A stretch of 55,312 nt of DNA from Chloroflexota bacterium (GTDB lineage: Bacteria > Chloroflexota > Dehalococcoidia > Lucifugimonadales > UBA3495). Both the position numbers and the translations under genes were made by a program. The stretch lies in assembly GCA_027623675.1 (NCBI GenBank), contig JAQBVF010000023.1, positions 1 to 55,312 on the forward strand, given 5' to 3'. The notes beneath the pieces are model-generated. The model had not been told where the DNA came from, ran no database searches, and worked only from the letters and a program-made list of their open reading frames with translations. Each line of letters opens with the position of its first letter. The first letter of the stretch is position 1. Below, piece after piece: positions 45,747-53,850 of this stretch.

Positions 45747-47384
45747 ATGGACGGAGTCACGGCCATCGCCAACATACTGCGGATGGAAGGCGTGGAATTT
45801 ATCGGCTGCGTGCCCTATCAGCCCCTATTGGAAGCAGCGGCCATCGCCGGCATCCGCCCCATCATCTTCCGGCAGGAAGGCACCGGCATCCACATGGTCG
45901 ACGGCTATTCCAGGGTCACCAACGGCAAGCGCACGGGCGTGTTCATGATGCAGAACGGCCCCGGCGCCGAGAACGGCTTCGGCGGCGTGGCTCAGGCATA
46001 TTCTGAGTCGGTGCCCATCCTGCTGCTGCCCGCCGGGATGGCCCGGGAGAAACGGGGCGTCCACCCCAATTTCTACCCCACGCGCAGCTACGAGACCATC
46101 ACCAAATGGTCCGACGAGATGAACATGGTCGAGCGCATCCCCGATCTGATGCGCCGTGCCTTCACCAAGCTCCGCAGCGGAAGACCCGGCCCGGTCCTGC
46201 TGGAGATTCCCGCGGACGTCGCCGCTGCCGAACTACCCGAGGAGCTATTCAACTACGAACCGCCCCGCGTTGTGCGGCAGCAGGCCGACCCCGCCGACGT
46301 AAGCCGCGCCGCCAAGGCCCTGTTGGCTGCCGGCGATCCCATCATCCACGCTGGACAGGGCGTGCTATACGCCGAAGCCACGCCCGAGTTGATCGAGATC
46401 GCCGAGTTCCTCCAGGCCCCGGTGATGACCTCTCTTTCGGGCAAGAGCGCCTTCCCCGAGACCCACCCGCTTGCGCTCGGCGCCGGCGGTCCCAGCACCA
46501 CCGGCATGGTCAATAAATACCTGAAGGGCGCCGACCTGGTGTTCGGCGTGGGTTGCAGCTTCACCAAGACCAACTTTGCCCAGCCCATGCCCCAGGGCAA
46601 AACCATGATTCATATGACCAACGACGAAGACGCCATCGGCCGCGAGGGCAAGTGCGAATACCCCCTGCTGGGCGACGCCAAGCTGGTGCTGCGGCAGGTA
46701 CTGGATGAACTCAAGAGCCAAGCCGGCGCGGCCCGGCCCAACAACCAGGCCCTGCAAGACGACATCGCCGCGGTCAAGAAAGATTGGCTGGCCCAGTGGA
46801 TGCCCAAGTTGACCTCCGACGAGGTTCCCCTGAACCCCTACCGGGTGGTCTGGGACCTAATGCACACCGTTGACCTGGACAACACCATCATCACCCACGA
46901 GTCGGGCAGCGCCAGAGAGTACCTGACTCCCTTCTGGGAGGCCCGCGCGCCCCGCAGCTTCATCGGCTGGGGCAAGTCCACCCAATTGGGCTACAGCCTG
47001 GGCCTGGCCATGGGCGCCAAGCTGGCCGAACCCGAAAAGCTGTGCATCAACGTCATGGGCGACCTGGCCTTCAGCACGGTTGGGCTGGACGTCGAGACGG
47101 CGGTCCGATGCAAGATTCCCACCATGACCATCATCATCAACAACGCCTACATGTCCATCTACGACAACAGCCGGTTCCCGGTGGCGCTGGAGAAGTACAA
47201 CGTAAAGACGCTGTCGGGCGAGTTCTCCGAGGTCGCCAAGGCCATGGGCGCCTACACCGAGAAGATCACCAACCCAACGGACATCATCCCCGCCATCAAG
47301 AGGGGCATCGCCGAAACCGAGGCCGGCAACGCCGTGGTGCTGGAGTTCATCACCAAGGACGAAGGCCAGTACTCCAAGTTCTAG
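45747..47384 (+). CDS. Thiamine pyrophosphate-requiring enzyme (acetolactate synthase-like)
   Basis: RQE...HM.DGYSR, GPGAEN, GRPGPV.LEIP, GWGKSTQLG, GD...INN. Confidence 0.9.
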   Translation: MDGVTAIANILRMEGVEFIGCVPYQPLLEAAAIAGIRPIIFRQEGTGIHMVDGYSRVTNGKRTGVFMMQNGPGAENGFGGVAQAYSESVPILLLPAGMAREKRGVHPNFYPTRSYETITKWSDEMNMVERIPDLMRRAFTKLRSGRPGPVLLEIPADVAAAELPEELFNYEPPRVVRQQADPADVSRAAKALLAAGDPIIHAGQGVLYAEATPELIEIAEFLQAPVMTSLSGKSAFPETHPLALGAGGPSTTGMVNKYLKGADLVFGVGCSFTKTNFAQPMPQGKTMIHMTNDEDAIGREGKCEYPLLGDAKLVLRQVLDELKSQAGAARPNNQALQDDIAAVKKDWLAQWMPKLTSDEVPLNPYRVVWDLMHTVDLDNTIITHESGSAREYLTPFWEARAPRSFIGWGKSTQLGYSLGLAMGAKLAEPEKLCINVMGDLAFSTVGLDVETAVRCKIPTMTIIINNAYMSIYDNSRFPVALEKYNVKTLSGEFSEVAKAMGAYTEKITNPTDIIPAIKRGIAETEAGNAVVLEFITKDEGQYSKF

Positions 47385-47452
47385 CCCCGTAACCGCCGGT
47401 TGATTGGCCGGCAGTGGCGTGGTCTAAACAGATAATCTGGTTGAGGTGCCGG

Positions 47453-49063
47453 TTGCCCGATTTCGTTCTAGTTCTCGGGGTGATTGCCATCGTCCTTACG
47501 GTAACCGCCCTGGCGTCCGGCTTGGTTGAGCGGTCGCCGCTGTCGTTCCCGTTGATGTTCCTGGGCCTGGGGTTCCTGCTGGGAAGCCGGGGGTTCGCCG
47601 CGCTGGAAGTCGGCCCCCATTCCCCCGTACTGGAAGTGGTGGCGACGCTAACCTTGGCCCTGGTCCTCTTCCTAGACGCGGTCAAACTCCAGGTGGACGA
47701 GCTGGGGAAGCGGTGGGTGGTCCCGGCGCTGATCCTTGGCCCGGGCACCGCCTTGATCATAGCCGTCGGCGCTCTTCCCTTCGGCCTATTCCTCAACTTT
47801 GGCTGGATACTGGCGTTCATCGGCGGCGCGGTCCTGGCATCCACCGACCCCGTAGTTCTTCGCGAGATCCTGCGCGACGAGCGCATCCCCCGCCCAATCA
47901 GACAGGTGCTCAAGATCGAAGCTGGCATGAACGACCTGGTCGTGCTCCCGGTGGTCTTGGTGCTGATCGCAGTGGCCACCGACCAGGGAGGCAGCGCCGG
48001 CGGTTGGAGCGTGTTCCTGATCAAGCTGCTGGTCTTGGGACCTGTGATCGGGTTCGCCGTGGGTGGACTTGGTTCGTGGCTGATGAACTGGATCGACCTC
48101 AAGATGACCATCCGGCCGGAGCATCAGTCTCTCTACGGTGTGGGGCTGGTGCTGGCGGCCTACTCGGCAGCCACGGCTGCGGGCGGAGACGGGTTCCTGG
48201 GCGCGTTCGCGGCCGGACTGGCCGTGGTATTGCTGAACCAGTCCCTCTGTGATTGCTTCTTGGAATACGGCGAAGTCACCTCCGAGATGGCCATGCTTTT
48301 GGCCTTTGTGCTGTTCGGTGTGGTGCTCTCCGACATGGTTGGCACGGTGGACGTCGTCCCCACGTTGGTCCTGGCGGGCTTGGTGATCTTTGTCATACGC
48401 CCGGCGGTGTTGGGCGTCGTCTTGGCCAAAGCCCGGATGAGTTGGCAGGCCCACGCCTTCATCTGTTGGTTCGGGCCGAGAGGACTCAACTCCCTGCTGC
48501 TGGCCCTGTTGGTAGTCCAGGCGGGCATTCCTGGCTCCGAATTGCTGTTGGCCACGGTCGGCGTGGTAGTCATGGCTTCGGTGGCCATCCACGGCGGAAC
48601 GGCGACCCCGGTGGGCGTATGGTACGGCCGGACCGCCGCGGAGGAGACTCTGGAAGAGGAGCGTGAGAGCACCGTAACCGGCCTCTTCGGCGACCACGAG
48701 GACCACGTTCCCCTGATAACACCCCAAGAATTATTCTCCCGGCTCTCCCAACCCAACCTACCGCTGGTGATCGACGTGCGGACCCGGTCCAGCTACAACC
48801 AACAGGGCACGAGGATCCCTGGCTCCGTGCGGGTGCTTCCGGACCAAGCCGTTGAGTGGGCCACTGACCCAGACCCTAACTTTCCGCTGGGGCAGGAGTT
48901 GGTCGCCTACTGCAATTGACCCGACGATGCAACTAGCGTCCGTGTGGCGCAGCAGCTTAGGGACCAGGGACTGGAAGTATCGGCGTTGGCCGGGGGCATC
49001 GACGCCTGGAGAGCCTTGTACCCCGTGGAAGCGGTCGAGACCGCCGCTCAACCCCAGCGATGA
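47453..49063 (+). CDS. CPA1 (NhaP-like) cation:proton antiporter fused to a C-terminal rhodanese domain, probable selenocysteine at TGA 48917-48919
   Basis: LASTDP, EAGMND and WFGPRG (CPA1). Then VIDVR...Y...RIPGS...VAYCN-TGA-PDDATSVRVAQQLRDQGLEVSALAGGIDAW, with the rhodanese fold continuing in frame for 47 codons past the TGA. GAGG RBS before TTG 47453. Confidence 0.85.
48929..48956 (+). promoter_or_regulatory. Candidate bacterial SECIS hairpin
   Basis: Upper stem GCG-(U bulge)-CC / GG-CGC closing loop GUGU. The loop starts with G, 22 nt after the UGA. Folded by eye. Confidence 0.5.
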
Positions 49064-49212
49064 CATTAGGTTCTTGAAATAAACCGGCGTCTCGGCTGAA
49101 ATGTACTGGTCTACTCCTTGAGGCCGGGGCTATATCCTGTAGACGTCATGGTTCCGGCTGATCTATTCCCCCACGCCAGCAACCCGACACCTGGTTCGAG
49201 GAAATTGACGCC

Positions 49213-50013
49213 ATGACGCTTCCCTCCGCACCCAGCCATACGACCCCGGCCCATCAGCCCGGCAAAACCGGCACTGAAACTTTCGCCAAAGATTCAACCG
49301 CCCGCAAGGGAAATGCCGGGCCACGCCAGCCCACGGTCCACGAGATGCCCACCGGCGAAAGACCCCGGGAAAGACTGATTGAATACGGCTCCAGGAACCT
49401 GAGCAACACAGAGCTCATCGCCATCTTGCTGCGCACAGGGTACTCCGGCGAGAACGTGATCTCACTATCGTCCCGGCTCCTGACCCGCTTCGGCGGTCTG
49501 GCCGGGCTGGGCAAAGCCGCCTTTGCCGAACTCTGCGGCGAGAAGGGCCTGAGCGAAGCCAAAGTCTGTCAGTTGCTGGCCGCGTTGGAGTTGGGCCGCC
49601 GCTTCATCTCACTGGCCCCGGAAGAGCGCATCATAATCAGCACGCCGCAGGACGCCGCCAACCTGGTCACCGGCGAGATGGGCCTGTTGGACCAGGAGCA
49701 CCTGCGGGTTATACTGCTGAACACGCGTAATGAAGTGCTCAACACCCATGAGATCTACGTGGGAAACGTCAACAGTTCAGTGGTGCGCCCGTCCGAGATA
49801 TTCCGGCCGGCGGTACGGAACAACGCTCCGTCACTGATCGTGGTCCACAACCACCCCTCGGGCAACCCAGCGCCCAGCGACGACGATATCGCCATTACGG
49901 AAGACCTAGTCGCGGCGGGCAAACTGCTGGGGATCGAGGTGCTGGACCATCTCATCGTGGGCAGCGGGCTCCGTTACGTGAGCATGAACGAAAGCGGCCA
50001 GGGGTTCAGCTAG
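49213..50013 (+). CDS. radC: RadC/YicR (UPF0758) JAB-domain protein
   Basis: ERPRERL, ELIAILLRTG, HNHPSGNPAPSDDD, LDHLIVG. Confidence 0.93.
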   Translation: MTLPSAPSHTTPAHQPGKTGTETFAKDSTARKGNAGPRQPTVHEMPTGERPRERLIEYGSRNLSNTELIAILLRTGYSGENVISLSSRLLTRFGGLAGLGKAAFAELCGEKGLSEAKVCQLLAALELGRRFISLAPEERIIISTPQDAANLVTGEMGLLDQEHLRVILLNTRNEVLNTHEIYVGNVNSSVVRPSEIFRPAVRNNAPSLIVVHNHPSGNPAPSDDDIAITEDLVAAGKLLGIEVLDHLIVGSGLRYVSMNESGQGFS

Positions 50014-50129: not shown

Positions 50130-50459
50130 ATGTCTTACTTCATTGACGCTTCGAGCCGGAATCCCATGGCGTTGGTGCCTGGCGCCCGTACCCGCACATT
50201 CTGGGGGGAGAACATGCTCCTGTCCCTGGTCGAAGTGGATGCTGGTTCCGTGGTGCCGTTGCACACCCACCACCACGAGCAGGGAGGCGTCATCCTAGAG
50301 GGGGAACTGGAGATGGGAATCGGCGGCGAGGTAAAACTCTTGAAACCGGGCGATATGTATATCATCCCCGGAGACGTGGAACACTACGCCAAGGCCCATG
50401 CGGTGAAGGCGGTCGCATTGGACATCTTCAGTCCCGTTCGGGAAGAGTTCCAATACTGA
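50130..50459 (+). CDS. Cupin domain protein
   Basis: VPLHTHHHEQGG, IPGDVEH, DIFSPVREEF. Confidence 0.88.
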   Translation: MSYFIDASSRNPMALVPGARTRTFWGENMLLSLVEVDAGSVVPLHTHHHEQGGVILEGELEMGIGGEVKLLKPGDMYIIPGDVEHYAKAHAVKAVALDIFSPVREEFQY

Positions 50460-53491: not shown

Positions 53492-53567
53492 GGGGATATA
53501 GCTCAGTTGGGAGAGCGCGGCGTTCGCAATGCCGAGGCCGAGGGTTCGAGTCCCTCTATCTCCACCA
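53492..53567 (+). tRNA. tRNA-Ala(CGC)
   Basis: Cloverleaf GGGGATA...TATCTCC-ACCA with G3:U70, anticodon loop TT-CGC-AA and GTTCGA T-loop. Confidence 0.96.
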
Positions 53568-53571
53568 AAAT

Positions 53572-53647
53572 GCCCCTGTAGCTCAGAGGATAGAGCGGCG
53601 GCGTCCTAAGTCGCGCGTCGGGGGTTCGAATCCCTCCAGGGGCACCA
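53572..53647 (+). tRNA. tRNA-Arg(CCT)
   Basis: Acceptor GCCCCTG/CAGGGGC-ACCA, A20 in the D-loop (GGATA), anticodon loop GT-CCT-AA. Confidence 0.94.
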
Positions 53648-53772
53648 TAACAATCACGGTCGGCGCCCGATAGCGAAGGCGCTGCCCACCAAGGGTCCGC
53701 CGCCGATCAATGTCGGCGTCACCCATCAAAAGGCCCGGCGTCACCCGCCACCGGCGGGACGCCACACATCGC

Positions 53773-53850
53773 AGGAGCGTAGCTCAGTCTGGCCAGAGCG
53801 CTGGTCTCCAAAACCAGTGGCCGGGGGTTCGAATCCTCCCGCTCCTGCCA
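53773..53850 (+). tRNA. tRNA-Trp(CCA)
   Basis: Acceptor AGGAGCG/CGCTCCT-GCCA, anticodon arm CTGGT-CT-CCA-AA-ACCAG. Confidence 0.96.

Follow-up and report, generated by a model that had tools for sequence, protein, structure and literature searches.

Does the in-frame TGA near the 3' end of a predicted cation/proton antiporter gene in an uncultured Chloroflexota bacterium end that gene, or does it specify selenocysteine (Sec)? The question arises in contig JAQBVF010000023.1 of assembly GCA_027623675.1, a stretch of 55,312 nucleotides that we call the window. Here a forward-strand frame opens with TTG at 47453, reads through to ...ELVAYCN and meets TGA at 48917-48919. The open reading frame called with translation table 11 ends at 48919, and past this codon the same frame continues for 47 codons, PDDATSVRVAQQLRDQGLEVSALAGGIDAWRALYPVEAVETAAQPQR, ending at a second TGA at 49061-49063. 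The original prediction, made from the letters of the window, held that the first TGA falls in the active-site loop of a rhodanese domain and that the frame runs on for 47 codons. We find the same: the TGA lies two codons past an invariant Cys. With TGA translated as Sec (U) the read-through product has 536 residues and matches both PF00999 and PF00581, in keeping with the antiporter-rhodanese protein of roughly 536 residues that had been proposed. The TTG start is supported by homologs, which begin with MPDF... at the matching position, and the genes of relatives terminate with TAG or TGA within a few codons of 49061-49063. We are close to certain of both the selenoprotein identity, argued from sequence, and the antiporter-rhodanese architecture, to which structural models also contribute. 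Judged in this way, the feature is real: a genuine, mis-annotated selenoprotein that brings a new architecture to an already known kind of Sec-rhodanese.

Homologs provide the first line of evidence. Our search of relatives took in 61 genomes, the source genome and 60 others, and at 14 loci, counting that of the window, the column corresponding to the first TGA was readable; it holds TGA at 12, TGT at one and TGG at one. A collection of species-representative genomes gave a wider sample, in which 80 loci were kept of 486 confirmed relatives; the two sets probably overlap, and the relatives are not independent of one another. There the column is TGA at 64 loci and a Cys codon at 15 (12 TGC, 3 TGT), which agrees with the earlier claim that the TGA aligns with Cys. 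The remaining locus, L093, has no alignable rhodanese domain, and the 'TGT' entered for it in the raw counts is spurious. TGA forms range over Dehalococcoidia/SAR202, Thermomicrobiales, Roseiflexaceae, Herpetosiphonaceae and Caldilineaceae. Their loop reads Y-C-x-U, where x is T, S, A, N or another residue, and is Y-C-N-U in the protein of the window. The Cys homologs are full length, and two of them, P0017 and P0019, carry C-x-C at this position.

The distribution bears directly on the idea that the gene is a pseudogene, or that its TGA is a TGC or TGT misread in sequencing or assembly. In favour of this idea, TGA is one base away from either Cys codon, and the assembly is incomplete (91.4% complete, 48 contigs). 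The same TGA recurs, however, in 64 independent assemblies from several classes of Chloroflexota, which refutes this explanation and leaves it next to no probability. It had been recognized at the outset that close relatives all encoding Cys would speak for error or nonsense mutation; with TGA at 12 of 14 and at 64 of 80 loci, that objection does not apply. Nor did we find TAA or TAG at the Sec column among the loci examined, the other pattern that had been named as damaging when coupled to an unconserved downstream frame.

That frame is in fact conserved. Past the TGA it stays open for 39-63 further codons in all 63 usable TGA loci, two of which run off their contig. Leu at +23 and Gly at +25 and +26 are invariant, Trp stands at +30 in all but one of the 64 Sec forms, and over codons +11 to +38 the mean ratio of nonsynonymous to synonymous divergence (pN/pS) is 0.47. 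Because the same column and an open, conserved frame recur in 64 of 80 loci, the in-frame TGA is not a chance pattern.

A few loci stand out. At seven (L051, L052, L054, L059, L061, L064 and L083) the antiporter part has extra frame interruptions or truncations upstream of the UGA, whose cause may lie in indels of the assembly, in partial contigs or in decay of the copy. Ser occupies the Sec position (Y-C-S-S-L/P...) in the full-length clusters P0003 and P0004, of 528 residues each, known from protein sequences alone; it may stand for a true TCA or come from gene calling. Two loci carry labels from other phyla, L070 (Candidatus Hebobacterum abditum, Armatimonadota) and L092 (Bacteroidetes bacterium); both nest tightly within Chloroflexota clades, a placement that suggests mis-binning or recent transfer.

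Were the first TGA a true stop, the gene product would be an antiporter of 488 residues that carries only half of a rhodanese domain, and the 47 codons past the stop would be an untranslated relic. Public annotation takes this side. Table 11 and all public gene calls end the protein there, and 46 of 55 database matches to the C-terminal region stop at the UGA column, as the original prediction anticipated in saying that standard gene callers would truncate the protein. Matches to the membrane domain at E<=1e-20 amount to at least 2,446 clusters in the database, and among the best 120 of these N-terminal matches 101, by our count, are 484-491 residues long; the sequences of P0005, P0014 and P0072 likewise end just ahead of the UGA, and databases cut the fusion short at about 484-488 residues. 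If the Sec reading holds, inference from the domains of these proteins misses the rhodanese tail. Yet a relic would decay, and in none of the 63 usable TGA loci has the frame closed; the GG..W signature it encodes is invariant or nearly so, and pN/pS remains at the value given above. Full-length Cys homologs are also hard to square with a stop. We consider a true stop very unlikely, the more so as it would cut one fold in two, after the central strand and ahead of the helix that follows.

That fold is the rhodanese domain, and the downstream frame completes it as had been claimed. PF00581 aligns to the read-through protein over profile positions 1-101 of 102 with 40.6 bits (cut-off 22.2), and only the read-through protein matches the whole profile. 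Modelled alone, the tail reaches a predicted local distance difference test score (pLDDT) of 85.5. Its alpha/beta fold has 103 PDB matches at E<=0.001, and all of those listed are rhodanese-type, with 3tp9, Alr3790 (3ilm) and 2hhg at the top. Cys487, invariant in the alignments A4 and A5, is the first loop residue past the central strand (483-486) and ahead of the helix at 493-504, the place of the catalytic Cys in a rhodanese. Sec489 would follow two residues later, at the N-terminus of that helix in the model.

Bacterial Sec insertion is directed by a selenocysteine insertion sequence (SECIS) element whose apical loop is small and includes a G, as described in an earlier study (PMC1088965). 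A stem-loop of this kind stands shortly past the UGA in the window. It begins 16 nt beyond it and has a 5-bp stem (48936-48940 with 48946-48950) that closes a small CGUGY loop (48941-48945), whose G and U are at +26/+27. For comparison, the loop G and U of E. coli fdhF are at +23/+24, and published search rules permit 16-37 nt between UGA and loop. In the ungapped alignment of the 64 TGA forms the five pairs make up 320 cells, of which 99.1% hold a standard pair. Compensation is seen in three cells at two of the five pairs, as C-G to U-A and G-C to A-U, and RNAalifold independently predicts the same helix.

Synonymous sites provide what we regard as the strongest evidence for a putative recoding signal here. 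Across codons +6 to +10 the third-position entropy of the 64 Sec forms is 0.27, 0, 0.32, 0 and 0.34 bits, compared with 0.97, 1.92, 1.93, 1.83 and 1.23 bits in the 15 Cys forms; the corresponding pS values are 0.069 and 0.77. The freeze is local, as flanking codons of the Sec forms have third-position entropies of 0.8-1.9 bits and pS of 0.68-0.71. Because synonymous sites are frozen at just this place, the constraint acts on the RNA, exactly where a SECIS element is expected and only in company with a UGA codon.

Several results weigh against this interpretation of the hairpin. It is short, and its predicted stability is no better than that of shuffled sequences, with z-scores of +0.61, +0.59 and -0.18 over 86-nt and 44-nt stretches past the UGA. 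The minimum-energy fold of the window's own 44 nt past the UGA is a competing hairpin; in three of three relatives tried, the conserved hairpin lies within the minimum-energy fold. Rfam has no match at E<=10 in 48700-49200. In the 15 Cys forms, too, 80% of the cells of this pairing scheme are paired (mean of shuffles, 70.4%), so that pairing alone does not separate the two classes. Since the Cys forms are thus no clean negative control for pairing, the synonymous-site test took the place of that control. The case for a SECIS element rests on comparative evidence, because single-sequence folding gave it no support.

The genome is equipped to decode such a signal. The original prediction had proposed a search for selA, selB, selC and selD, and all four are present above their cut-offs in this uncultured metagenome-assembled genome. 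The tRNA-Sec (selC) scores 70.4 bits against a gathering score of 47 and is called tRNA-SeC(tca) by ARAGORN, while selA (554.8 bits), selB (347.7 bits) and selD (380.3 bits) exceed curated cut-offs. Among the 61 genomes sampled from the same order, 56 have selA above the cut-off. The selD frame includes one in-frame TGA of its own. This selD (L018, on the minus strand of contig C3 of the source genome, G000) is itself a selenoprotein, with the TGA in the context HCAGUAAKL and, about 20 nt on, a 7-bp hairpin with a GUC loop.

Read-through could in principle insert something other than Sec, either because UGA has been reassigned to Trp or Gly or because a near-cognate tRNA suppresses it. This would fit the TGG found at the Sec column in one relative, L033 (genome G054), and in the protein P0061, which read Y-C-T-W-L-D-E and keep the hairpin sequence. 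The G054 copy is probably damaged, however, because it was matched as two separate pieces with a few bases in common, and the usual alternative in homologs is Cys, at 15 loci. TGA also terminates 12 other long frames within the window, selA and selB are read without a stop inside their frames, and CCA is the anticodon of the window's tRNA-Trp: the genetic code is not changed at TGA. As the hairpin, moreover, is constrained in TGA forms only and at the expected place, we judge non-Sec read-through extremely unlikely. That tRNA-Trp(cca) is clustered with tRNA-Ala(cgc) and tRNA-Arg(cct) at 53492-53850 of the window, and a sub-threshold 'tRNA-Sec' match of 46.2 bits is this same tRNA-Trp.

With the Sec reading in place, the rest of the protein can be considered as one molecule (Table 1). 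A model of the whole protein built with AlphaFold 2 (AF2) on 47 aligned sequences has a mean pLDDT of 87.0 and a predicted TM-score (pTM) of 0.85. It consists of 13 membrane helices, the last of which (362-397) is long and extends into the cytoplasm, and a compact alpha/beta domain; this long cytoplasmic helix, with a conserved EERE linker, joins the membrane and rhodanese domains.

Table 1. Positions in the window of the antiporter-rhodanese gene and its parts, with the evidence for each (TM, transmembrane).
Feature	Positions	Strand	Basis
Shine-Dalgarno-like GAGGTG	47443..47448	+	4 nt upstream of the TTG start; read from sequence
Whole gene, predicted 536-codon antiporter-rhodanese selenoprotein plus TGA stop	47453..49063	+	TGA=U translation, homolog starts, AF2 model
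CPA1/NhaP Na+/H+ exchanger membrane domain, residues 18-389, 13 predicted TM helices	47504..48619	+	PF00999
N160-D161 'ND' motif in EAGMND	47930..47935	+	aligned to PaNhaP; invariant in 47/47 rows of A4
L-C-D-C-F motif (C266, C268), TM9-TM10 turn	48245..48259	+	conservation in A4
Rhodanese domain, residues 423-521, predicted cytoplasmic	48719..49015	+	PF00581, domain model, PDB fold matches
TGC = Cys487, canonical catalytic-Cys position	48911..48913	+	invariant in A4 and A5; DSSP of models
TGA = predicted Sec489 (C-N-U)	48917..48919	+	Sec/Cys column in 80 loci; Sec machinery in genome
SECIS-like hairpin GCGUC-CGUGU-GGCGC	48936..48950	+	covariation, RNAalifold, synonymous sites
True stop TGA, as predicted	49061..49063	+	translation; relatives' ends

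The membrane domain belongs with the CPA1/NhaP exchangers by its PF00999 (Na_H_Exchanger) match, 130.9 bits against a cut-off of 26.2, its 13-helix NhaP fold and its ion-binding residues. PaNhaP (4cz8/4cza) is the closest solved structure by sequence (E 5e-6). Foldseek matches the domain to PaNhaP, MjNhaP1, SOS1, SLC9C1 and KefC, with E of about 1e-11 to 1e-10 for the first two. Two membrane helices are unwound in the model, at ASTDP (129-133) and WFGPRG (339-344). T131-D132, E156, N160-D161 and R343 align with PaNhaP motifs, N160-D161 falling on the 'nd' of PaNhaP 'tesifnd'. From the NhaP literature we take N160-D161 to be the CPA1 ion-binding motif and T131-D132, E156 and R343 to be ion-binding residues. 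In A4 there is no variation at D132, E156, N160, D161, R316 and R343, and at least 90% of rows keep T131. Because its ion-binding residues are aligned and conserved, the exchanger looks functional. The scores stay below the NCBIfam equivalogs for a K+/H+ antiporter (NF003716, 146.4 against 355 bits) and for a_cpa1 (TIGR00831, 40 against 279.6 bits), and family assignment does not set the transported cation.

A second feature of the membrane domain deserves attention. Few stretches of the family are as conserved as the LCDCF motif, in which C266 is invariant and C268 conserved in at least 90% of A4. LCDCF also served as a pattern in the search for related loci, and a second search for homologs returned members of this family only. 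The motif is absent from the aligned PaNhaP segment and is kept in P0161, a Cys-type fusion of 46% identity. Helix counting on the model, together with the positive-inside rule, would place this turn on the cytoplasmic side, the same side as the tail.

How new is this protein? The C-x-U rhodanese is not: 'Rhodanese-like form 3', or rhodanese_LYCAU (NF041203), is catalogued as a predicted prokaryotic selenoprotein family in two reviews (PMC13188914, PMC9312934). The tail shares with it the rhodanese fold and a Sec two residues past a conserved Cys (Y-C-x-U). NF041203 is also the best rhodanese-type NCBIfam match, over profile positions 16-124 of 126. That family is described by a free-standing, 126-position profile, whereas in the present protein the domain sits as a C-terminal tail on an antiporter of 400 residues. 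The NF041203 proteins are thus the nearest relatives of the tail, and we do not class it as a member because it is fused and falls below the cut-off.

The fusion to an antiporter is another matter. A full-text literature search found no paper on a Sec-containing cation/proton antiporter; the supplementary tables of selenoproteome surveys and subscription journals lay outside that search. The word 'antiporter' occurs nowhere in the text of a 2026 review (PMC13188914). The text of that review names, as predicted transporter selenoproteins, the mercuric transport protein, a P-type ATPase, YeeE/YedE, Sao proteins and SO_0444. What is new, then, is the antiporter fusion alone, because C-x-U rhodanese selenoproteins had already been catalogued.

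Each half of the protein has its own relatives. The membrane domain resembles PaNhaP (4cz8, 4cz9, 4cza) and MjNhaP1 (4czb) in its 13-helix fold (TM-scores of 0.71-0.75, normalised to the target), and its T-D, E...N-D and G-P-R-G motifs align with those of PaNhaP. Identity is 18-20%, however, and the archaeal proteins have no rhodanese tail, Sec or LCDCF. The Cys antiporter-rhodanese fusions P0017, P0019 and P0161 have the same architecture and loop, with Cys in place of Sec; they have no UGA, and at the place of the hairpin of the Sec forms their synonymous sites vary freely. The Y-C-x-C-P rhodanese subtype is also found fused to DedA (P0054, which its source names a Cupriavidus necator rhodanese-related sulfurtransferase, and P0079) or alone (P0129, P0164). 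As far as names show, none of the Cys fusions or of the DedA-fused and stand-alone relatives has been characterised. Alignment A5 included two DedA-rhodanese proteins, which blurred a profile search of representatives, and we use that search only for architectures and truncated forms.

To see how often Sec and Cys have replaced one another, we turn to a quick, midpoint-rooted maximum-likelihood tree, whose 70 rows comprise 55 Sec and 15 Cys forms. Nine of the 78 loci in the frame test were left out of it, seven with the frame interrupted upstream of the UGA and two running off their contig. The Sec/Cys label requires at least four changes on this tree. Cys forms nest among Sec forms, and the midpoint root does not fix the direction of change. 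Two Dehalococcoidia Cys forms, L078 and L100, sit among Sec forms and retain hairpin-like sequence. Both also lack C268 of the LCDCF motif (LCDSF and LCDYF). With two cases only the observation is anecdotal, but it hints that the Sec of the tail is linked to the Cys of the membrane domain.

What might a Sec-bearing rhodanese do at the end of an exchanger? We propose a model where the UGA at 48917-48919 is decoded as Sec, and the hairpin at 48936-48950, within the coding sequence and 16 nt downstream, would recruit SelB with Sec-tRNA(Sec). Translation would then run on for 47 codons to yield a 536-residue membrane protein. Its N-terminal part would be a cation/proton antiporter of the NhaP type (CPA1) with 13 TM helices, in which the ion-binding residues T131-D132, E156, N160-D161 and R343 are intact, and its cytoplasmic rhodanese would present the active-site loop C487-N-U489 at a helix N-terminus. 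With a low-pKa selenol beside a thiol, this Cys/Sec pair may form a highly reactive sensor of redox state or sulfane sulfur, possibly of soft metals, by way of a reversible selenenylsulfide or a persulfide/perselenide adduct, for example. The exchanger would respond to the state of the tail, and Na+(K+)/H+ exchange would thereby follow the redox or chalcogen status of the cell. Taken as a whole, from Sec decoding through architecture to a regulatory tail, we consider this the best explanation and a very probable one.

The regulatory role, considered separately, is offered tentatively, as are the redox gating and the metal or chalcogen chemistry suggested in the original prediction. The regulatory role draws on KefC with glutathione (8by2), SOS1 (8iwo, 8jd9) and SLC9C1 (8pd3 and others), in which a CPA membrane domain is likewise followed by a cytoplasmic domain; we take these domains to sense a ligand or signal and to regulate the exchanger. 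They are of other kinds, namely KTN/RCK in KefC, an autoinhibitory helical domain with a CNBD-like part in SOS1, and VSD with CNBD in SLC9C1, with neither rhodanese nor Sec among them, and we infer function from them by analogy only. By that analogy we favour a tail that senses redox or chalcogen status and so regulates the exchanger, although we would not yet lean on this. A more elaborate form of the idea, in which Cys487/Sec489 and C266-D-C268 would together make a four-chalcogen redox relay or a soft-metal site that switches Na+(K+)/H+ exchange, we regard as unlikely; such a protein would be the first selenium-dependent secondary-active ion exchanger.

Two sets of results count against a regulatory role. 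The tail falls short of the NF041203 cut-off of 115 bits, with 71.3 bits for the protein and 67.8 for the genome, and no stand-alone member of that family above the cut-off was found in this genome. A conserved gene neighbourhood was not found either, the best neighbour family recurring in 10 of 79 loci. As no neighbour family recurs beyond same-genus synteny, the locus yields no operon-based clue to function. Upstream, at 45747-47384, lies a three-domain thiamine-pyrophosphate enzyme; downstream are a RadC/JAB protein (49213-50013) and then a small cupin (50130-50459). Synteny of the thiamine-pyrophosphate enzyme and RadC is shared only within the genus, and a scan for promoters and terminators gave nothing useful.

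The Sec reading would equally hold if the rhodanese did not regulate and instead handled a chalcogen or metal, carrying or transferring sulfane sulfur or selenium, or binding a soft metal or metalloid such as Hg, As, Cu or Cd through Cys487/Sec489. The C266-D-C268 turn might take part, and the chemistry might be coupled to ion exchange or merely co-localised with it. Rhodanese domains are sulfurtransferases, and the structural neighbours of the tail include persulfide dioxygenase-rhodanese and CoA-persulfide reductase fusions. That the same YC-x-C-P-x-E subtype occurs with DedA and alone fits a handling role, as does the apparent restriction of the LCDCF motif to the fusion family; the tail also matches ChrE, a chromate-resistance rhodanese, weakly (33.6 bits, cut-off 120). 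The ions that CPA1 exchangers transport are, however, Na+, K+ and H+ rather than chalcogen anions. The loop, C-N-U-P-D-D, is without the basic residues of classical sulfurtransferase loops, and no sulfur, selenium or metal-resistance genes are conserved beside the gene. A handling role is accordingly possible but doubtful, and it is the sensor-regulated exchanger that we keep as our proposal.

If the Sec reading is true, a large and widespread family is mis-annotated in public databases, and an ion/proton antiporter joins the short list of predicted transporter selenoproteins. The family would also provide a natural Sec/Cys series within one architecture, with the switches counted on the quick tree. 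With such a series one could examine what advantage selenium gives to a domain for sensing or transfer, and whether redox state gates ion homeostasis in these bacteria. Beyond this, should the relay between tail and membrane domain prove true, redox, sulfide, selenium or metal status would bear directly on the pH of the cytoplasm and on ion homeostasis in Chloroflexota, among them the SAR202 group that abounds in the ocean.

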